A stretch of 64,000 nucleotides of DNA from Deltaproteobacteria bacterium (lineage in GTDB: Bacteria > Desulfobacterota > Binatia > UBA9968), in assembly GCA_009692615.1 (NCBI GenBank), contig SHYW01000004.1, positions 8,273-72,272 on the forward strand. Reading direction: 5' to 3'. Made by a program: the position numbers and the translations under genes. The stretch's first letter is position 1, and every line of letters begins with the position of its first letter. Shown one piece after another: positions 1,091 through 14,325 of this stretch. The notes under the pieces were generated by a model, which did no database searches, was not told the DNA's origin, and saw only the letters and a program-made list of their open reading frames with translations.

Positions 1091-1873
1091 TCACTCCATT
1101 TTTTTCAGCTTCTCGCACTCGCGGGCGACGCCGTCGGTGAGCGCCCACCAGATCGCCAGCCCTTTGCGCAGCGCTTTTATCACTCGCACTTGCAGCTCGT
1201 TGGTGGTGGCGAACTGTTCGATTAATTCATAGCCGATATTGCTGTGTTCGGTGTCGGCCTCGCCGTGCTCGGCGAAGAATTCAATATCATTCGGTTTCAA
1301 ACCGTAATGATCTCGAAAGCTTTTAAAAAAGCGCCCGCCGGTCAATTGGTTCGAATATTCGTTGCAGCAATTGGTCGAGGCCACCTGTTCGAGAATGTGA
1401 TTACTGCGCAGCGCGATATCCAACCAACCGACCCGCGCCAGCACCGTGGTCGGGAGAAAGTCCTCTTCTATCTCGCAGCGTTCCAATTCCTTGGCCGGTA
1501 TGCCGATCGCCTCGCCGTAGCGCAAGAACAAGGCGCGATGGCCGAGCACCGCGCGCGGCGAACCTTCGAAATAACTGTAGCCCACCTCGGAATGAATAAC
1601 ATCGACAAATTTTTTGTGAATCTCGGGATCGTGAATACCCGACAGTTGGCAACGCACGAGCTTGGCCGTGTTAATGGCGACGTTGTAAGCGAAAATACCC
1701 CAGGCCTCTTTGGCCCACACCCGCACCGCTTCGATGGCCAGCTTGCCTTCATAGAGGTCGAGATAAAACGGATGATAGAGCCGCGCGTGGCGCTGCTTGA
1801 CCTCGTTCATGAGGGCCTGACAAAACTCTTTCGTGGGCAGCGTCTTTCCACTTAGGACTGCTTCAACTGACAT
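1091..1873 (-). CDS. Heme-oxygenase-like fold, iron-containing redox enzyme family (TenA/PqqC-like)
   Basis: 260 aa ORF with an ATG start. It is all-helical, with HPFYLDLYEGKL..VWAKEAWGIFAY near the N-terminus and FFAEHGEADTEHS near the C-terminus, resembling PqqC/TenA/HDO-type proteins. Confidence 0.6.
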   Translation of the reverse strand: MSVEAVLSGKTLPTKEFCQALMNEVKQRHARLYHPFYLDLYEGKLAIEAVRVWAKEAWGIFAYNVAINTAKLVRCQLSGIHDPEIHKKFVDVIHSEVGYSYFEGSPRAVLGHRALFLRYGEAIGIPAKELERCEIEEDFLPTTVLARVGWLDIALRSNHILEQVASTNCCNEYSNQLTGGRFFKSFRDHYGLKPNDIEFFAEHGEADTEHSNIGYELIEQFATTNELQVRVIKALRKGLAIWWALTDGVARECEKLKKME

Positions 1874-1898
1874 GTTTCACCTCTACATGAATCTTGGA

Positions 1899-1983
1899 AG
1901 GGCGGGTTTTAAACCCGCCCCTACGAATCTCATTTCTTTTTTGCGTACTTTGCGTTCTTTGCGGTTAATTGTCCGAATTCCGC
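1899..1983. repeat. REP-like elements: hairpin agggcgggttttaaacccgcccctacg followed by ttttgcgtactttgcgttctttgcggttaattgtccgaattccg
   Basis: The first motif recurs at 43911-43935. The second recurs at 57419-57465 and partly at 47527-47560. Confidence 0.8.
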
Positions 1984-2421
1984 TTACGCCATCCGCTGCT
2001 TTCGATTGTCGAATTTAAATTTGTTGGCGTTGCAAGCGACCTCGACGCGGTTGCCGTCGGGATCGAGAAAACTCACCGAACGATTGCCCGCCACCACCAA
2101 AGTTTCCGGCCCGCTGACGACGGGAACCTTGCGCCGCTTTAGAAGCGGACACAGCTCATCGATAATTTCGTTGCGGTCGACGTAGATGCAGAAGTGATGC
2201 AGCTTCGCCATCCCCTTGCCGCCGACGTGCTTGGCGCCTTTGGGTAATGCTTGCAGCGCGATATCGTGATGCTCACGGCCGTAACTCAAAAACGTCATCT
2301 TGGTTTGCAAGTTGCGCGCCGAGACTTTCAAGCCGAGCACCGCGGTATAAAATCGCACCGACTTCTTGAGATCCGCGACATTGAGCACGATATGACCGAG
2401 GGCGCCATTTTTCACCAACAT
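1984..2421 (-). CDS. VOC (glyoxalase/extradiol dioxygenase) family protein
   Basis: The track ORF is 1984-2517. I prefer the internal ATG at 2421 (MLVKNGALGHIVLNVADLKKSVRFYTAVLGL..FLDPDGNRVEV), because the N-terminal extension looks non-coding. The start remains uncertain. Confidence 0.7.
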   Translation of the reverse strand: MLVKNGALGHIVLNVADLKKSVRFYTAVLGLKVSARNLQTKMTFLSYGREHHDIALQALPKGAKHVGGKGMAKLHHFCIYVDRNEIIDELCPLLKRRKVPVVSGPETLVVAGNRSVSFLDPDGNRVEVACNANKFKFDNRKQRMA

Positions 2422-2528
2422 GCTAGCAGCATTAATGACCGGAGGCAGAACTGTCAAGCGCCGCTCGGCGACGACAACAACGATTTTCCATGTTACAACA
2501 TCAGCAGTAATCACCAAGGAATGATTAA

Positions 2529-3254
2529 ATGATCAAGACTCTGTTGTATCTTCTCGCCAGCGGCAAGTTGGGGACAGTGCTGCTCACGGGCGGTACAATG
2601 CTGTTGTCGGTGTTCGTCTACGCATGGATATTCGGCCTGCCCTACGCCGTCGGCTTTGTCCTGTTGATCTTCCTCCACGAGATGGGTCATTACGCCGCCG
2701 CTCGCCAGTGCGGCCTCAAGGTCGGCGCGCCGACGTTCATCCCATTCGTCGGCGCCTGGATCGCGCTCAAAGACTTGCCACACAATGCCGAAACCGAAGC
2801 CTACATCGGCATCGCCGGTCCCGTGGCCGGCAGCGTCGCCGCTGTCGCTTGTTATTTTCTCGCCTTGAGCTACGACAGCCGCTTGCTGCTGGCATTGTCC
2901 TACTCCGGTTTTTTTATCAATCTGTTTAACCTGATTCCGCTGTCACCCTTCGACGGCGGCCGCATCACCGCGATCATCAGCCCGCGCCTCTGGCTCCTCG
3001 GCGTGCCGATATTGATGGCGGTATTTTTCTACACGCCCAGCCCGCTGCTAATCTACATGGCGTTACTCGCCTGGCCGCAGATCAAGCGCGCCTGGCACTA
3101 CGACCCGGCGGCGCCGGAGAACGCCTTCTACTATTCGGTCAGCCCAAGAAAACGAATTCAGTACTCCGTCTGTTACCTTGGCTTGGCGGCATTTCTCGCC
3201 GTCATGAGTCACGACGTTCACGAGATGTTGGAATTGTCCCGCAGCGCTCGATGA
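2529..3254 (+). CDS. Site-2 protease family (M50) membrane metalloprotease
   Basis: 241 aa polytopic membrane protein. It has HExxH in LIFLHEMGHYAAARQCG and NLIPLSPFDGGRI downstream. Confidence 0.75.
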   Translation: MIKTLLYLLASGKLGTVLLTGGTMLLSVFVYAWIFGLPYAVGFVLLIFLHEMGHYAAARQCGLKVGAPTFIPFVGAWIALKDLPHNAETEAYIGIAGPVAGSVAAVACYFLALSYDSRLLLALSYSGFFINLFNLIPLSPFDGGRITAIISPRLWLLGVPILMAVFFYTPSPLLIYMALLAWPQIKRAWHYDPAAPENAFYYSVSPRKRIQYSVCYLGLAAFLAVMSHDVHEMLELSRSAR

Positions 3255-3276
3255 AAATGTCGCATCGAACTGTGTC

Positions 3277-3344
3277 CTGTACGGGCGGGGCGCGACCCGC
3301 CCTTCCCATCCACCCCTGGATACCGGCCTACGCCGGTATGACGG
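3277..3344. repeat. Two REP-like palindromes (ctgtacgggcggggcgcgacccgcccttccc; cccctggataccggcctacgccggtatgacgg)
   Basis: Both are self-complementary. Related copies are at 9395, 15524, 57466, 59855 (first type) and at 26265 and 43881 (second type). Confidence 0.75.
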
Positions 3345-3449
3345 ATATAAAAAGTGCGTAAACCTGTCGAACCGAAACCAAGATCGCCATTGACAGCAGT
3401 TTAATCCATGGGCCATATATCGATTGCCATTCTTGTAACGAGGTAGAAG

Positions 3450-4200: not shown

Positions 4201-5070
4201 ATGAGAAACTTTGAATTAGTCGAACCGCGATCGCTAAACGAAGCCTGCGCGCTCCTCGCCAACGAGAGCGATGCCAAAGCAGTCGCCGGCGGCACGGCGC
4301 TCTTGACGATCATCAAGCAAGGCCTGCTTCTGCCGAAGTCATTGGTCAACTTGAAGAAGATCGGCGATGGATCGGCGATCGCGTTCGATCCAATCCACGG
4401 CATGCGCATCGGCGCTTTGGCGACGATCAACGAGATCGAAACCTGCGAAATTGTAAAGCAGCACTATCCTATTCTCGCCCAAGCCTGTCACGTCGTCGCC
4501 AACATTCGCATTCGTAACATGGCGACCATCGGCGGCAACCTCGCCCATGGCGATTATCAATCCGATCCGCCGACCGTGCTCGCTGCTTTGAATGCGCGCG
4601 TTGAAATCATGAGCGCGACAGGGATTCGTGAATTACCGCTCGGCGAATTCCAACGCGGCAGCTACGAAACGGCCCTCGAAGCCGGCGAGTTGATCTCCGC
4701 GGTGATCATGCCACCGCTGCCAAGCGGAATGCTGGGCCACTATGTAAAATTCACGACCGGCTCTTCGGAAGAGCGCCCCTGCGCCGGTGTCGCGGCGTTG
4801 GCGCGGTTTGAAAACGGGTTGTGCAAGGAACTGCGCCTCGCTGTCGGTGCCGTGTCGGCGAAGCCGTCGCGCATTGGCGCGGAAGCCCTCGCCAACGGCA
4901 AAGCGCTGACACCTGATTTGATCGCCACCATCGCCGCCGAGGCGGCGCGCGCCGTCGACCCGATCGACGATGTGCGCGGACCGGCCGATTACAAGCGCCA
5001 TCTGGTCGGCGTGTTAACCCGCCGCGCGATTCAAGCGCTCGCCAATGGCAAGACGGAGGCGACAACATGA
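4201..5070 (+). CDS. Molybdenum hydroxylase FAD-binding (medium, CoxM/XdhB-like) subunit
   Basis: The track ORF starts at a TTG at 4174. I prefer the ATG at 4201 (MRNFELVEPRSLNEA..AVAGGTALL..NMATIGGNLAHGD..RGPADYKRHL). Confidence 0.8.
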   Translation: MRNFELVEPRSLNEACALLANESDAKAVAGGTALLTIIKQGLLLPKSLVNLKKIGDGSAIAFDPIHGMRIGALATINEIETCEIVKQHYPILAQACHVVANIRIRNMATIGGNLAHGDYQSDPPTVLAALNARVEIMSATGIRELPLGEFQRGSYETALEAGELISAVIMPPLPSGMLGHYVKFTTGSSEERPCAGVAALARFENGLCKELRLAVGAVSAKPSRIGAEALANGKALTPDLIATIAAEAARAVDPIDDVRGPADYKRHLVGVLTRRAIQALANGKTEATT

Positions 5071-8539: not shown

Positions 8540-9343
8540 ATGCCCACCGACACCTGCTACTGGAAACACGAAATCCCCGCCGACCAAGCTTTTCCCTGCT
8601 ACGACGGCAAAAGCACAGTCTGTAGCCATTGCTGCGTCGAGCAGTGTCCCAAGGAAACGCCGCAATGGTTCGCCGCCTGCGCCCGCGCCGGCCATCCGAC
8701 CTGGCCTAGCGTCGATCAAGGCCAGCGCGTGTCGCGCAAACTGGTCGTGCTCGAATCTTACTGGGACAACCGTCTGTTTCAGACCATGTCGGTCAAAGGC
8801 TTCTTCGAATCCATGGGGCCGTTGCACGATCCGCCGTTGCAACTAGCGCACCGCTTCGTCGAATCCCAACGCGGCCTAGCACACTACACGCGATCGCCCG
8901 AAGGCCTTCTCTGGCGCGATCCCGCCGCCGCCGATGCGCCGATTTTCTACTTGGCATTTCACGGCGCGCCGAGCGAAGTCAAATCGGTCCTCGAATCCAT
9001 CGGCGCCCAAGAGCTGTGCGATGCCTTCCAAAACTTCGGCGTCAAACCCAACCTGGTTTACTTCGCCGCGTGCAGCGTGCTCAAAGGCCGCGCCGGCCGA
9101 CAGTTCGCCAAGAAATTTCTCGAAGCCTCCCGCTGCCGCGCGCTGCTCGGCTACACCACCAACGTCAACTGGATGCTCAGCCTGCTGACCGATATGCTTT
9201 TCCTACACCGCTTCTATCGCGACGACGATCCATGGAAAAACTTGCGCAAGATTTACCGCTCGGTGCTGAACGACTTCAAACCCGCCGAAGAAATTGGTTG
9301 GACATTAATCGAGAATCCGCGCAGCTTTAAGAAGCGCCGATAA
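8540..9343 (+). CDS. Uncharacterised protein: Cys-rich N-terminus plus a domain with a caspase/CHAT-like His-Cys arrangement
   Basis: 267 aa with GC3-rich codons from the first ATG. It has seven Cys within residues 6-47 (CSHCCVEQC). PIFYLAFHGAP (H141) and NLVYFAACSV (C178) each follow a hydrophobic strand. Confidence 0.6.
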   Translation: MPTDTCYWKHEIPADQAFPCYDGKSTVCSHCCVEQCPKETPQWFAACARAGHPTWPSVDQGQRVSRKLVVLESYWDNRLFQTMSVKGFFESMGPLHDPPLQLAHRFVESQRGLAHYTRSPEGLLWRDPAAADAPIFYLAFHGAPSEVKSVLESIGAQELCDAFQNFGVKPNLVYFAACSVLKGRAGRQFAKKFLEASRCRALLGYTTNVNWMLSLLTDMLFLHRFYRDDDPWKNLRKIYRSVLNDFKPAEEIGWTLIENPRSFKKRR

Positions 9344-9448: not shown

Positions 9449-10552
9449 ATGCTGAGAGCTGGAATCGTCGGTCTGCCCAACGTCGGCAAGTCGACACTGT
9501 TTAACGCCATCACGCGCACGCGCAAAGCCGAGGCGGCCAATTATCCCTTTTGCACCATCGATCCCAACGTCGGCATGGTCACCGTGCCGGACGCGCGGCT
9601 CTATGTCTTGCAGCAGATGGTCAAAACCAACGTGGTCATCCCGGCGGTGATCGAGTTCGTTGACATCGCTGGCCTGGTCAAAGGCGCCAGCCAAGGCGAA
9701 GGGCTCGGCAATAAATTTCTCACCCATATCCGCGAAGTCGACGCCATCGTCCAAGTTGTGCGCTGCTTCGAAGACGCCGACGTGCACCATGTCTCCGGCA
9801 ACATCGATCCGGTGCGCGACATCGAAGTCATCAACACCGAACTCATGCTCGCCGATCTCGAAACCGTGAAGAAGCGGCGCGAGCGCATCGCCAAGGAGAT
9901 CAAGCGCGGCGACAAAGCCGCCGCCGCCGAGGACGCCCTGCTGGTGAAAATCGAAACCGCCCTCGACGCTGGCAAGCCAGCTCTCACTGTCGAACTGACG
10001 CCGGAAGAACACGCCATGTCCGCGCAGTTTTTCCTGCTCTCCGACAAGCGCACGATCTTCGCCTGCAACGTCAAAGAGTCCGACTTGGCCACCGCCGATC
10101 AGAACAGCTACGTGCAAAAAGTGCGCGACTACGTGAAAACCCATCTCGCTTGCGAAGCGGTGGTGATCAGCGCGCAGATCGAGAGCGACCTCGTCGATCT
10201 CGAACCCGCCGACGCTGAAGCCTTTCTCAAAGAACTCGGCGTACAAGAAAGCGGCATCGGCGCGCTCATCCGCGCAACTTATCATCTGCTCGGGTTGCGG
10301 ACTTATCTCACCGCCGGCGAAAAAGAAGTGCGTGCCTGGACCATTCACGCCGGCGACACCGCCCCCAAAGCCGCCGGCGTCATCCACTCCGACTTCGAAC
10401 GCGGCTTCATCAAAGCCGAAACCGTTTCTTACGAGGACTTAGTTCAATGCGGCTCCGTCGCCGCGGCCCGTACGAAGGGCTTATATCGCATGGAAGGGAA
10501 AGAATACGTCGTGCAGGATGGGGATGTGATGTTGTTTAAGTTCAATGTTTAG
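9449..10552 (+). CDS. ychF: Redox-regulated ATPase YchF (Obg-family GTPase-like)
   Basis: 367 aa. It has the P-loop GIVGLPNVGKSTLFNAIT, the motif FVDIAGLVKGAS and a TGS-like C-terminus, EGKEYVVQDGDVMLFKFNV. Confidence 0.95.
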   Translation: MLRAGIVGLPNVGKSTLFNAITRTRKAEAANYPFCTIDPNVGMVTVPDARLYVLQQMVKTNVVIPAVIEFVDIAGLVKGASQGEGLGNKFLTHIREVDAIVQVVRCFEDADVHHVSGNIDPVRDIEVINTELMLADLETVKKRRERIAKEIKRGDKAAAAEDALLVKIETALDAGKPALTVELTPEEHAMSAQFFLLSDKRTIFACNVKESDLATADQNSYVQKVRDYVKTHLACEAVVISAQIESDLVDLEPADAEAFLKELGVQESGIGALIRATYHLLGLRTYLTAGEKEVRAWTIHAGDTAPKAAGVIHSDFERGFIKAETVSYEDLVQCGSVAAARTKGLYRMEGKEYVVQDGDVMLFKFNV

Positions 10553-10645
10553 TGAACAAGCTGAAAATGCGCAGCCGAAAGTAAATCCTGTTACGTTAAC
10601 CAGGGAGACCCATTAAGAATAGTCGCGTAAAGAAAGCAACAGAGC
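10453..10645 (+). repeat. Copy 1 of a composite direct repeat (ychF 3' end 10453-10547 plus DUF4926-3'-like segment 10590-10645)
   Basis: 10453-10547 matches 11120-11214 (95 nt, 9 mismatches by my count). gttacgttaaccagggagacccattaagaatagtcgcgtaaagaaag matches 11441-11488 with small indels. Confidence 0.85.
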
Positions 10646-10657
10646 CAAATTCAATCC

Positions 10658-11074
10658 ATGAAGATTGCGCCTCAGAGTTTCTATGCAGCTATCGCTGCTG
10701 GCTGCGCCACGGTTTTGCCCTTGGTCGGGGTGCAATTAGTCGTTGATTATTTCGATTCACCCGCTAAAGGTCCGGATCGGGCAACAATGGCAGTGATCTT
10801 CCTAACGCCCATTATCATCTTGGGATTTGCAGCCTACTTTGTTGGAGTCAGGATATTACTTTCATTGCTTCGGCTCGATTCGCTTCGTACGGCATTGATC
10901 GTAAGCGCGCTCACTGTCGGCGTTCTAATAAGCTGGATGATTTTCAACGACCCGTCATCAAGCCCGAATACGTTCTGGGGATTTGTCGGACCTTCTTGCA
11001 TAGTTCTTACATCCCTCGTCGCGGGAACTTTTGTGTACGAGTGGGCGCGTCAACGTATTCATCCGAACTGGTGA
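10658..11074 (+). CDS. Small integral membrane protein, unknown function
   Basis: 138 aa with about four hydrophobic segments. Its third codon positions are visibly AT-richer than the flanking core genes. It lies between the two composite repeat copies. Confidence 0.55.
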   Translation: MKIAPQSFYAAIAAGCATVLPLVGVQLVVDYFDSPAKGPDRATMAVIFLTPIIILGFAAYFVGVRILLSLLRLDSLRTALIVSALTVGVLISWMIFNDPSSSPNTFWGFVGPSCIVLTSLVAGTFVYEWARQRIHPNW

Positions 11075-11119
11075 AATAGACCACAATACACATGACCGCT
11101 CACGTAGCGATGAATGCGA

Positions 11120-11219
11120 CTCCGTCACCGCCGCGCGCACCAAGGGCTTGTGCCGCATGGAAGGGAAAGAATATGTCGTGCAGGATGGGGATGTGATGTT
11201 GTTTAAGTTCAATGGGTAG
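11120..11219 (+). pseudogene. Orphan duplicate of the last ~32 codons of ychF
   Basis: It encodes ..SVTAARTKGLCRMEGKEYVVQDGDVMLFKFNG*, against ychF ..SVAAARTKGLYRMEGKEYVVQDGDVMLFKFNV*. There is no upstream ychF body. Confidence 0.85.
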
Positions 11220-11249
11220 TGCGCGCCTCGGTCGCGAACGGAAACGAAG

Positions 11250-11477
11250 ATGAAACAACGAAAACTCAAACTATTGGAAACCATCGCACTGCTTCAAGAC
11301 ATACCATCCCGCAAGCTGAAACGCGGCGAAGTTGGCACGGTAGAAGAAATCCTTGCGCCCAATTTTTACGAAGTTGAATTCTGTGATGACGAAGGGCAAA
11401 CCTACGCCGAACTGGCGTTACGCGGCATACAGATCATCCCGTTACATAACCAGAGCCCATTAAGAATTGTCGCGTGA
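11250..11477 (+). CDS. DUF4926-like small protein
   Basis: 75 aa. LLETIALLQDIPSRKLKRGEVGTVEEILAPNFYEVEFCDDEGQTYAEL matches the DUF4926 pattern (SH3-like, ..yeVEF.d.dG.t) as I remember it. Confidence 0.65.
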   Translation: MKQRKLKLLETIALLQDIPSRKLKRGEVGTVEEILAPNFYEVEFCDDEGQTYAELALRGIQIIPLHNQSPLRIVA

Positions 11478-11574
11478 GCAAAGAGGCCCACGACAGCTCC
11501 AATCTATAGAATTGGTATTATGCCCCCGGACCTTTGTCTCTTTCATTTTCCAAAACTGTGGCTACAATAGGTCC

Positions 11575-11907
11575 GTGGCTCGAGCACTCTCCCCGGATGA
11601 TGTTCTCTTTGAAGTTTTGAGTCCGCTTGGATTTCGTGTACGCGTCACACGCGGCTACTGGGAAGTCATCGTTTCGATCAAGCATCCGGTCATGGCGGGA
11701 CATGAACAGGATGTCAAAGAAACGCTTGAAACTCCCAGCGAGATTCGATTGAGCAAGAACGATTCGACAGTTCACCTGTTTTACCGGCAGAAAGAGATCG
11801 GACGATGGGTATGTGCTGTGGCCAAGCGTCTCGATGGTGAAGGCTTTCTGATTACAGCTTACCCAACCGACGCGATCAAAGAAGGAGAACAGATATGGCC
11901 CAAGTGA
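11575..11907 (+). CDS. Conserved small protein of unknown function (candidate toxin-like partner of DUF2283)
   Basis: The track ORF is 11467-11907 with a TTG start. I prefer the GTG at 11575. Motifs are GFRVRVTRGYWEVIVSIKHPVMAGHEQDVKETLETPSEIRLSKNDSTVHLFYR..GFLITAYPTD. It overlaps the next gene by 13 nt. Confidence 0.5.
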   Translation: MARALSPDDVLFEVLSPLGFRVRVTRGYWEVIVSIKHPVMAGHEQDVKETLETPSEIRLSKNDSTVHLFYRQKEIGRWVCAVAKRLDGEGFLITAYPTDAIKEGEQIWPK

Positions 11908-12107
11908 AAGTTTTTTACGATGAAACCGGCAATACGCTCACCGTCTGGTTTGGCGATCCTGAGAGCGAGTACATCAGCGAGGAAACCGGTGAGGAAGTCA
12001 TCCTCATGAAGGACAAGGCTGGTCATGTCATCGGTTTTGAAAAGCTCAATTTCACGGTCGCCAAACCCAAGCATCTACAAGTGGCGTTCGAAACGGTAGG
12101 CGGCTAA
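11895..12107 (+). CDS. DUF2283-like small protein
   Basis: 70 aa. VFYDETGNTLTVWFGDPE..VILMKDKAGHVIGFEKLNF fits the YD.e.D.l.i.f ... G.ivGiE pattern of DUF2283. Confidence 0.7.
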   Translation: MAQVKVFYDETGNTLTVWFGDPESEYISEETGEEVILMKDKAGHVIGFEKLNFTVAKPKHLQVAFETVGG

Positions 12108-12332
12108 CGGAATTTTCACCCCGATGTGGTTCGCTACTGTCTCGTCTGTCAAGCCTGACACGGAATCAGTGGATGGCCGTATATCACTGCATGATCTTGC
12201 TTTAAGAATCACTAGAAACTTGTAGGTGCAAAAAATATAGACACGTCCGAACAGATACTCCGACAACTTCGTTGGATCAAGTGGTTAAACGCATTCATCG
12301 CGATCAGTTTCGCAGTAACTGCCGGCTCGTTT

Positions 12333-12647
12333 GTGTGGGTAAGCCTTGAGATGCCTCGCACCACATCCAACGCTGCTTATTCTGCCTCCTTTACGAACCA
12401 GGGCACAAACCTCTTAAACAAAGGCAAGGCAAAAGAAGTCATCCTGTTGGCAGAAGAACGCGAAAAGAAGTCTCCTATGGATCCGTACGTGTATTGGTTT
12501 CGGGGCAAAGCCTACTACCAATTAGGAGAGTATGATGCTGCGTTAAAAGATATACTTGTTGCGGACGAGATCTGCCCAGTGTGGCACGAAGAATATACCG
12601 GGCCTTTCATCAAGAGAATCAAAGAAAAACTTACTGAGAAGGGCTAG
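12333..12647 (+). CDS. TPR-like repeat protein, possibly 5'-truncated
   Basis: It contains YWFRGKAYYQLGEYDAALKDILVADEICP (a TPR motif). The frame is open from 12216 and encodes a TM-like LNAFIAISFAVTAGSFVWV, but there is no ATG/GTG/TTG before 12333. Confidence 0.45.
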   Translation: MWVSLEMPRTTSNAAYSASFTNQGTNLLNKGKAKEVILLAEEREKKSPMDPYVYWFRGKAYYQLGEYDAALKDILVADEICPVWHEEYTGPFIKRIKEKLTEKG

Positions 12648-12753
12648 GAACGACGTCGTTGCACGTAACATTTGCGTGGGGCGGATGCCACGCAAACTCG
12701 GGCTGTTTTTCGATACATCTGTAACGACTCCGCTCACGCTAACGTTAGTTTTG

Positions 12754-14325
12754 CTAACCTTTCAATTCAAACTTCCCATCCTTATCCTGACCGATTTTCT
12801 CTTCTTCATACAACCGCGCCAGCGCACTCGCGACGGTCTTGTAATCCGCCTTGGGAAACTTATCCAAGAGATCGGCGAAGAAACAGTGCGACTTGCCGAG
12901 AGCCGCGACGATCTTCTCAACCAGTAATTCCACTGTTTCTGCTGACGTTGCATTGGCTTTTGCCTTTACCGTGACATCGGAAACGCCGACGTAATCGCTC
13001 AACTTAACCTTGCCCTGATTGAAATAAATGATCCGCTGGTACCGCTCGGCCGGAATATTTTCCGGGATCGTCGCGTCGATGCCCATCTTCGCTGTCGTCG
13101 GAACTTTGCCGTACAATGGCAGCGGCAAAGATGGATCGAGCGGCTTAGAGCGCGCGTTGGAGACGATGACGACATCGCGGTCGGCTTGCACGCGGGTCGC
13201 GACGGCCCACTCCACGTCGATGGGATCAAACACGTCGATATCGTCGTCGACGATGGTCACGTGTTTGATATCGGCGATGGACAAGAGCGCCATGATCGCG
13301 TTCTTGCCGTCGCCGGGAACTTTTTTGATCGACGCAATGATATGCCAGTGGCAACAGCCGCCGGGCGTGACGTTGATCCCAACCGTCTGCACGCCCGCTT
13401 CAGCCAATACGCGGCGCGCCGCGGCTTCGTAGATCGGCGCCGACATCCAGATATTTTCCCAAGGCATCTGCAGCGCGTAGTACATAGCGTCCTTGCGGTG
13501 CATGATCGACTTGATGCGCACTCTTGGATTCATGTGCATGCCGCCCATCAGGCGATTGAATTCGCTGAACGGCCCTTCGCTGTGCACCCAGCCTTCGGGG
13601 AGAATTTCTCCCTCTAAAACAATTTCGGCGTCGGCGATGCACGGCACCGGCACGGTTTCGCCGTCGGCGAGACGCAGCGGTTCGTTACGCAAGCCACCGG
13701 CGAAGGTCAGTTCGTTGACGCCGAGGTTGGCTTTGAATGTCGACGCGACCAATTCATACGGATGAGTGCCGATGGAGATGGAGATCGGCAGCGGTTTCTT
13801 TTTTGCCAAGGCGCGTTCGGCGAACTTGCGCATGTTGTTGGGCGTGACGATGTCGATGCCGGTGATGTTGCGCTCCTTGAGCATCAAGCGGTAGATGCCG
13901 GCGTTGATGCCGAAATCCGGGTCCTCGGCGATCACCACGCCGGCGGTGATCATCGGCCCGCCATCCATGATCGAAAACACCGGCACCGGCAGGTCGTAGA
14001 GATTTACTTTCTTGCCGGTATGAATGACTTCCTTCACCGGCGCGTTGGCGACGCGCTTCGGTTGGATCGGTTTGTCCATCGCTTTGCCGAGCTTGGCGCC
14101 GATGTTTTCATAGTCGACGCCCATGCCGAGCGCGATGCGCTTGCGCGATTGCAGCAGACCGGAAACCACCGGCATCGAATAGCCGGGCAAATTCCTAAAC
14201 AGCAGCGCCTTCTCCGACTGCGCCACCAATGCCGCCACGTCGCGCAGATCAACAGGTTTGGAAATCTCCAACAGCTCGTCGTTTTTTCTTAGCGTGTCGA
14301 TGTAATCGCGAAAGCTCGCTTTCAT
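12754..14325 (-). CDS. UbiD-family (prenylated-FMN-dependent) decarboxylase with a C-terminal extension
   Basis: 523 aa with UbiD-wide similarity (GGPMITAGVVIAEDP..GIYRLM, EGPFSEFNRLMGG, VTIVDDDIDVFDPIDVEWAVATR). It carries about 75 extra C-terminal residues, ending ..LARLYEEEKIGQDKDGKFELKG. Confidence 0.85.
   Translation of the reverse strand: MKASFRDYIDTLRKNDELLEISKPVDLRDVAALVAQSEKALLFRNLPGYSMPVVSGLLQSRKRIALGMGVDYENIGAKLGKAMDKPIQPKRVANAPVKEVIHTGKKVNLYDLPVPVFSIMDGGPMITAGVVIAEDPDFGINAGIYRLMLKERNITGIDIVTPNNMRKFAERALAKKKPLPISISIGTHPYELVASTFKANLGVNELTFAGGLRNEPLRLADGETVPVPCIADAEIVLEGEILPEGWVHSEGPFSEFNRLMGGMHMNPRVRIKSIMHRKDAMYYALQMPWENIWMSAPIYEAAARRVLAEAGVQTVGINVTPGGCCHWHIIASIKKVPGDGKNAIMALLSIADIKHVTIVDDDIDVFDPIDVEWAVATRVQADRDVVIVSNARSKPLDPSLPLPLYGKVPTTAKMGIDATIPENIPAERYQRIIYFNQGKVKLSDYVGVSDVTVKAKANATSAETVELLVEKIVAALGKSHCFFADLLDKFPKADYKTVASALARLYEEEKIGQDKDGKFELKG

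Follow-up and report, generated by a model that had tools for sequence, protein, structure and literature searches.

Proteins of the DUF4258 family appear in a review of RelE/ParE toxins as toxin–antitoxin (TA) toxins of the BECR fold, the target being unknown and no reference being given (PMC11980606). The same fold is found among contact-dependent toxins, and the CdiA-CT structure 7m5f is described by its depositors as a BECR-fold RNase (PMC8616854). On the antitoxin side, DUF2283 (YuzE) proteins have been cited as predicted antitoxins (PMC12521503), and a DUF2283 domain is also present in FseA (an activator) and QseM (an anti-activator), which are regulators of the integrative element ICEMlSym (PMC4755241). 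In the literature we found no experimentally shown toxin partner or mechanism for any DUF2283 protein.

The window, by which we mean the whole stretch of 64,000 nt that was analysed, contains a variable islet of low GC3 with ychF on one side and a UbiD-family gene on the other. The ORF listing gives three ORFs here on the + strand, at 11250–11477 (75 aa), 11467/11575–11907 and 11895–12107 (70 aa). An earlier interpretation based upon the DNA letters (the sequence-only reading) had described three small co-directional genes of these sizes, and had grouped them as a TA-like triad of a DUF4926 protein, a protein of no nameable family and a DUF2283 protein. The three genes are present, and since close homologues of each number in the hundreds to thousands they are not chance ORFs. 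The grouping is different. The locus comprises a predicted TA pair that is intact, an orphan gene of antitoxin-like type and the scars of rearrangement, and is not a three-gene system. We read the pair as a self-contained type II TA cassette lying beside an unrelated orphan DUF4926 gene in a variable islet, and assign this reading a probability of about 0.75. The features of the locus are itemized in Table 1.

The islet had been suggested to be compositionally foreign, and this is borne out by the base composition. GC3 is 0.50–0.62 in five islet genes (10658–12647) vs 0.72–0.75 in ychF, the UbiD gene and other neighbours, and the regional GC content drops to 0.46–0.51 over ~10400–13000. RNA gene scans of the islet and its vicinity gave neither a tRNA nor an Rfam match, and a Pfam scan found no integrase or recognised defence gene within or adjoining it. 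For the proteins of the locus, no meaningful matches were obtained with PADLOC, PHROGs or NCBIfam.

Table 1. Features of the islet, with positions numbered from the first nucleotide of the window
Feature	Position	Strand	Description
DUF4926 3′-end remnant	10609-10636	+	28 nt, ending ...PLRIVA and stop; 86% identical to 11456-11483; repeat D4
Degenerate second copy of ychF 3′ end	11113-11221	+	109 nt, 89% identical to 10446-10554; repeat D1
Orphan DUF4926 gene	11250-11477	+	75 aa; downstream half of a separate DUF6883–DUF4926 module
Two-gene TA cassette (predicted)	~11535-12167	+	promoter region, toxin, antitoxin and ~60 nt 3′ tail; limits of homology with L089/L090
−10-like hexamer TACAAT	11563-11568	+	ends 6 nt before toxin GTG; read from the sequence
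Putative toxin, candidate BECR-fold (DUF4258/PBECR-like) RNase	11575-11907	+	110 aa, GTG start; from homologues, profiles and model
Antitoxin Shine–Dalgarno AAGGAG	11882-11887	+	within toxin codons K102-E103-G104-E105, 7 nt before ATG 11895
Putative antitoxin, DUF2283/YuzE	11895-12107	+	70 aa, pI 4.66 (acidic); Pfam match; starts inside toxin 3′ end by 13 nt

The middle gene encodes the putative toxin. Nearly all of its >2,000 homologues are ~110 aa long and the homology of the cassette (described below) begins at ~11535, and for these reasons the GTG at 11575 is preferred as the start codon over the TTG at 11467. An independent gene call on the identical short contig L081 also starts the gene at this GTG. 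The 146-aa version of the ORF that would begin at the TTG was rejected. The protein belongs to a large family, with 2,294 homologues in 90%-identity clusters, reducing to 1,179 cluster representatives at 50% identity (464 of these with E ≤ 1e-10).

The middle ORF has no Pfam match above threshold, with only a sub-threshold match to DUF7778, and the 110-aa protein does not match PF14076 (DUF4258; cutoff 25 bits) at either E ≤ 1 or E ≤ 10. Nor is there a precomputed Pfam domain on any of the 120 closest homologues listed (of 2,294). The relationship to DUF4258 is seen in other members of the family. At least two of the 120 homologues listed (one assigned to Nitrososphaera, one to Nitrospirae) are labelled ‘DUF4258 domain-containing protein’ by NCBI. 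When 27 close family members were scanned one by one against Pfam, 20 matched PF14076 at E ≤ 10 (the best at 1.7e-4, still sub-threshold) and one matched PBECR2. In a scan of 43 sequences, comprising the window protein and 42 more distant relatives, matches with E ≤ 0.01 were obtained to DUF4258 in 9, to PBECR2 in 2 and to PBECR3 in 2. A family profile aligned by hhalign with a bona fide DUF4258 protein (L124, 4503–4733, Pfam 7.7e-19) gives E = 0.0033, with an alignment that covers the second helix as well as the strand carrying ‘ITAY’ at the C-terminus. Judged from sequence the link between the family and DUF4258 is thus marginal, with E about 1e-4 to 1e-3. As it fails the gathering threshold of PF14076, the 110-aa protein is classed as a relative of DUF4258 and not as a member of the model. 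Where the sequence-only reading could offer no family, the sub-threshold profile matches and the fold now point to a divergent relative of DUF4258 and PBECR. Comparison of the toxin profiles, DUF2283, DUF4926 and DUF6883 with PDB sequences gave nothing significant.

The AlphaFold model of the 110-aa protein, calculated from a 27-sequence alignment, is confident (pLDDT 86.9, pTM 0.80). Its architecture consists of an N-terminal β-hairpin, two helices and a five-stranded sheet. The top Foldseek match is 7m5f_C (probability 1.00, TM 0.58), followed by HigB-type toxins, and the structural neighbours are BECR-fold RNase toxins, i.e. CdiA-CT, BrnT, colicin D and RelE. The model therefore has both the helices on a four- to five-stranded antiparallel sheet and the BECR RNase neighbours by which the BECR fold is recognised, in agreement with the earlier suggestion of a RelE/Barnase/EndoU-like fold. 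K36-H37-P38, R58, S60, Y70, T94, Y96 and K102 are conserved in the family, and W29, K36, H37, P54, S60, Y70, T94, Y96, K102 and G104 are kept even among representatives that are 36–62% identical. Metal-independent BECR RNases use a set of residues of the Lys/His/Ser/Tyr type, and by their conservation K36, H37, S60, Y70, Y96 and K102 are candidates for catalytic residues. On the basis of the model the 110-aa protein is predicted to be a BECR RNase-type toxin, distantly related to DUF4258 and PBECR.

The downstream gene encodes a protein that matches DUF2283 (PF10049) with 39.7 bits (cutoff 23) and E 5.5e-10, and PF10049 is precomputed on all 120 of the closest homologues listed for it. The association of the two genes was analysed in a scan with one genome per species that yielded 369 toxin relatives, of which the best 80 loci were studied. 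These best 80 of 369 are mostly from Chloroflexota, with toxin proteins 60–75% identical, and include loci from Planctomycetota, Acidobacteriota, Omnitrophota, Desulfobacterota, Verrucomicrobiota and other phyla. A DUF2283 gene lies immediately 3′ of the toxin gene on the same strand in every one of the best 80 (80/80), and in 78/80 it starts with an ATG inside the toxin gene, giving an overlap of exactly 13 nt up to and including the stop codon of the toxin. This is the geometry of the window, with the ATG at 11895 and the toxin stop ending at 11907. The 13-nt overlap is also found in the intact metagenome loci and in L125/126 (which were found from the antitoxin side), and the two genes are paired likewise in the contigs of 91%- and 77%-identical toxin relatives. 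We thus find two small, adjacent, co-directional genes with a pairing conserved across genomes, as in a TA module. The sequence-only reading had noted the 13-nt overlap, had named DUF2283 as the partner of the middle gene and had taken the two as TA-like and probably translationally coupled; the coordinates confirm the overlap, the partnership holds in 80/80 of these loci, and the strict pairing and shared overlap support the rest. We regard the pair as an intact and typical example of a widespread, predicted BECR-toxin/DUF2283-antitoxin module.

The AlphaFold monomer of the DUF2283 protein has five short strands and a low pLDDT of 52.9. The low-confidence model is compatible with a fold that depends upon the partner, and is too poor to support any mode of binding. 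Pfam identifies no HTH, RHH, AbrB or other recognised DNA-binding domain in the 70-aa protein.

Decayed copies of the cassette suggest which of the two proteins is harmful. The toxin gene is frameshifted in L115–L117 (three samples with one common lesion) and in L122/L123 (two assemblies), is cut down to its last ~20 codons in L118–L121, and is N-terminally truncated in L124. The DUF2283 gene beside it is (mostly) kept in each of these. No intact toxin gene lacking DUF2283 was found among the loci examined. From this asymmetry we infer that the 110-aa protein is the poison and DUF2283 the antidote.

The signals for expression of the two genes differ. A TANNNT sequence ending 4–9 nt before the toxin start is present in 41/79 loci vs 5–9/79 in control windows, and the stricter TANAAT occurs at the same place in 33/79 loci vs 1–4 in controls. 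An SD-like motif precedes the toxin start in only 13/79 loci. The toxin mRNA is probably leaderless, a reading drawn solely from the positional enrichment of the −10-like motif; a strict consensus scan of the islet called neither promoters nor terminators on the + strand, leaving TACAAT at 11563–11568 uncalled. A GTG start is unusual on a leaderless mRNA. For the antitoxin an SD-like 4-mer lies 4–12 nt before the ATG in 72/80 sequences (79 loci plus the window), and its consensus AAAGAAGGAGA is made by the invariant toxin codons K102-E103-G104-E. A leaderless toxin, an antitoxin SD embedded in the toxin gene and the 13-nt overlap would together constitute a layout that favours an excess of antitoxin.

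We propose the following mechanism. The 110-aa toxin would arrest translation through metal-independent cleavage of cellular RNA (tRNA or mRNA), with a putative active site of the His/Lys/Arg/Tyr type (K36-H37, R58, S60, Y70, Y96, K102). The acidic 70-aa DUF2283/YuzE protein would bind the toxin and neutralise it. If the toxin mRNA is leaderless it would be poorly translated, while the antitoxin with its strong SD in the KEGE codons would be translated well.

The extent of the cassette is defined by comparison with L089 and L090, metagenome loci that are 89% identical and located at a different genomic site. Homology runs from ~11535 to ~12167, giving a cassette of ~630 nt that starts ~57 nt past the DUF4926 stop codon. 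Downstream of the antitoxin the loci are unrelated in sequence, and many end in ordinary terminators. The insertion sites are mutually unrelated; in L122, for example, the cassette lies between Dak1 and Dak2. No terminal repeats or other mobility signature of the cassette were seen across the compared loci. L090 contains an exact 57-nt repeat of the 3′ end of the flanking gene. In a speculative reading taken up below, this repeat and the duplicated ychF 3′ end of the window are hints of insertion at the 3′ ends of genes with duplication of the target.

The DUF4926 gene lies outside this unit. Its 75-aa product matches DUF4926 (PF16277) over profile positions 1–56 of 57, with 69.6 bits (cutoff 29.1) and E 1.5e-19, and its homologues are highly conserved small genes. 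The usual neighbour of DUF4926 is an upstream DUF6883 gene, with stop and start codons that overlap (L084, L086, L087 and L088; Pfam 1.6e-26). The DUF4926 members of such modules are 72–88% identical to that of the window. In L085, a close relative with the same DUF6642–ychF neighbourhood, a module stands at the same position after ychF, with the order ychF–DUF6883 (4.2e-27)–DUF4926. In the window no DUF6883 is left directly upstream with an overlapping start, or elsewhere, and the ~375-nt gene of L085 is missing. The second copy of the ychF 3′ end (YchF-GTPase_C match of 7.4e-10 on a 62-aa ORF) is separated from the DUF4926 start by a gap of 28 nt. What the window retains of the module is the orphan DUF4926 gene and the 28-nt DUF4926 remnant. 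Because DUF6883 has been lost from the window, its DUF4926 is considered the orphan of an older and separate module; a DUF6883–DUF4926 module would once have stood after ychF, with the DUF6883 half lost since. The islet bears the scars of repeated rearrangement. An hhalign comparison of DUF6883 with the 110-aa toxin family found no relationship. DUF4926 adjoins the pair in L090 as well as in the window, and some loose linkage within TA islands is possible.

Several other explanations of the locus may be weighed against a two-gene cassette. DUF4926 might be the third partner of a three-component module, as a regulator, chaperone or second antitoxin. The three genes are indeed co-directional and adjacent in the window, and in L090, one of 33 metagenome loci, an 88%-identical DUF4926 lies within ~100 nt of the 89%-identical pair. 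There it is located downstream of the pair, however, in an order opposite to that of the window. A 120-sequence HMM finds no DUF4926 ≤4 kb from the pair in any of the best 80 of 369 genome loci, and L089 lacks DUF4926 too, as do the contigs that carry the 91%- and 77%-identical toxin relatives. DUF4926 moreover has a conserved partner of its own in DUF6883, and the cassette homology begins beyond its stop codon. With 0/80 of these genome loci and 1/33 metagenome loci the triad of the sequence-only reading is largely refuted, and the co-occurrence of the three families expected in other genomes is replaced by that of DUF4926 with DUF6883; we consider a three-component module extremely unlikely. 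The best structural matches of the model, CdiA-CT toxin domains and colicin D, would also suit a secreted polymorphic-toxin effector (of the CDI, T6SS or bacteriocin type) with its immunity protein, and the sequence-only reading had named an immunity/effector module as one of its options. Yet the 110-aa protein is a stand-alone domain without an N-terminal trafficking or pre-toxin region, nearly all of its >2,000 homologues are equally short, and the ORF listing and Pfam reveal no secretion genes nearby. A small overlapping gene pair and pseudogenisation of the toxin are typical of TA modules, and a secreted effector is very improbable.

The occurrence of DUF2283 in FseA and QseM (PMC4755241) raises another reading, in which DUF2283 is a transcription factor and the 110-aa protein a non-toxic partner in RNA processing or regulation. 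The near-neutral pI of the latter (6.29, computed) is in keeping with this. Against it, the fold resembles toxins specifically, and it is the 110-aa gene that decays repeatedly while DUF2283 stays, the reverse being never seen. The cassette is also patchy across phyla at 60–75% identity and occupies unrelated sites (such as Dak1/Dak2), a spread that suits a selfish module better than a regulator belonging to the host. We think the regulatory reading quite unlikely. A role mainly in abortive-infection defence against phage would refine the TA interpretation and is compatible with it. Defence is a role of many BECR-toxin modules of type II according to the review (PMC11980606), and the cassette is found in a variable islet beside other TA remnants; set against this, PADLOC and PHROGs gave no match and none of the genes immediately around the cassette was recognised as a defence gene. 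Such a role has a small chance of being the main one. Lastly, the pair could represent a distinct clade of BECR TA systems, outside the coverage of existing models, with a hard-wired ratio of the two proteins, a DUF2283 that also serves as a transcription factor in the manner of FseA, and a 0.6-kb unit that spreads via the 3′ ends of genes. The ratio would be set by the leaderless toxin mRNA and the antitoxin SD within the invariant KEGE codons, and the minimal unit, sometimes accompanied by an orphan DUF4926, would duplicate its target at gene 3′ ends as it spreads. This is speculative, and we consider it rather unlikely as a whole. We retain the self-contained type II TA cassette as the preferred interpretation.

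The practical result is a corrected annotation of the locus. If our reading is true, the pair adds a defined toxin–antitoxin pairing to the BECR catalogue, which would not surprise specialists in TA systems. The family of the 110-aa protein is large, is distributed across bacterial phyla and lacks a Pfam model, and at least one member (P0040) is assigned by NCBI to the archaeon Nitrososphaera. Functional data on the pair would inform three ‘DUF’ families at once.

Among the known systems, the CdiA-CT domains (that of Serratia marcescens BWH57 in 7m5f, and the tRNases of Escherichia coli NC101 and Klebsiella pneumoniae 342) have just 10–14% sequence identity with the window toxin. Each forms the C-terminal part of a large, secreted CdiA protein and has an unrelated immunity protein (CdiI), whereas the window protein stands alone. 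[quoted passage not shown] Its antitoxin BrnA is of the ribbon-helix-helix type, and that of the window is DUF2283 instead. Many RelE-type toxins are basic, whereas the window toxin has a pI of 6.3. The 70-aa protein lies above the Pfam threshold for DUF2283/YuzE (COG5428), and its relatives are called YuzE by JGI. Its predicted role as an antitoxin is unlike that of FseA and QseM, which regulate transcription in ICEs. The DUF4258 toxins (PF14076) are likewise small, stand-alone, BECR-type proteins encoded next to another small gene, and their C-terminal strand motif of hydrophobic residues, ITAY and P/D is also present in the window protein. They are ~75 aa in length, compared with 110 aa for the window protein with its additional N-terminal β-hairpin. 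In L124 the DUF4258 protein lies beside an MqsA-like zinc-ribbon protein, whereas the partner of the window toxin is DUF2283. The review notes DUF4258–MqsA fusions and a gene order of antitoxin before toxin (PMC11980606), and in the window pair the toxin comes first.

The low-GC3 islet is bounded on the left by ychF, the last 109 nt of which are present twice, the copies lying 667 nt apart with 89% identity. The second is a non-functional remnant, in which the coding for TKGLCRMEGKEYVVQDGDVMLFKFNG and its stop nevertheless persists. The doubled end points to recombination or duplication at the 3′ boundary of ychF. The two copies flank a 138-aa ORF whose hydrophobic segments are probably transmembrane, and which has no family match in Pfam, NCBIfam, PADLOC or PHROGs. 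Directly upstream of this ORF lies a 28-nt remnant of the 3′ end of a DUF4926 gene, so that of a second copy of DUF4926 nearly everything has been deleted. A further ORF of 98 aa follows the predicted toxin–antitoxin pair and precedes the UbiD-family gene, and is also predicted by gene callers on identical contigs. Upstream of ychF a DUF6642-like gene is present both in the window and in the close relative L085, and appears to belong to the conserved core neighbourhood. In L085 ychF itself occupies two overlapping reading frames (306 and 145 aa), the cause being a frameshift or else a misassembly.

Features of the islet, its surroundings and the compared loci
Sequence	Feature	Position	Strand	Remarks
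Window	DUF6642-like protein	8540-9343	+	267 aa; borderline Pfam, 27.3 bits
Window	ychF 3′ end, two copies	10446-10554; 11113-11221
Window	DUF4926 3′-end remnant	10609-10636		PLRIVA and stop; 86% identical to 11456-11483
Window	138-aa ORF	10658-11074	+	several hydrophobic segments; GC3 0.52 (low)
Window	Antisense ORF across DUF2283 gene	11859-12074	-	71 aa
Window	98-aa ORF	12351-12647	+	one sub-threshold TPR-like repeat; GC3 0.54 (low)
L085	DUF6642-like gene	114-824
L085	ychF, split	991-2095
L090	Direct repeat	57-113; 1198-1254
L122	Cassette locus	1140-3392
L124	Canonical DUF4258 and MqsA-like genes	4503-4961		DUF4258 76 aa, 7.7e-19
P0010 contig	Genes	160-783; 845-1377

The pair is found in other settings. 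In locus L090 it is enclosed, together with an orphan DUF4926, by a direct repeat in which 57 nt from the 3′ region of the flanking gene recur exactly, and which extends into the contig end. The repeat may be a duplication, in tandem or of the target, resembling that of ychF; alternatively, it may be an artefact of a circular or looped assembly. In L122, and also in L123, the cassette lies between the dihydroxyacetone-kinase genes Dak1 and Dak2, with a frameshift in the toxin and an intact antitoxin. On the contig of the toxin homologue P0010 (JGI 3300056388) a copy of the pair with 77% identity is directly preceded by the gene for a 207-aa protein with a Barstar domain, an RNase inhibitor family.

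The ORF antisense to the DUF2283 gene owes its conservation solely to that of the sense genes. In loci L127 and L128 a gene caller selected its 131-aa equivalent and left DUF2283 uncalled; some metagenome catalogues may therefore carry wrong annotations for this family.

A canonical DUF4258 gene is present in L124, and 4 nt after it begins that of a 74-aa MqsA-like zinc-ribbon protein (8.8e-05); at a distance of 2 kb from the two lies a copy of the predicted 110-aa toxin family that is truncated at its N terminus. The partner of canonical DUF4258 in L124 is an MqsA-like zinc-ribbon protein, whereas that of the 110-aa family in the window is DUF2283, so the two employ different types of predicted antitoxin.
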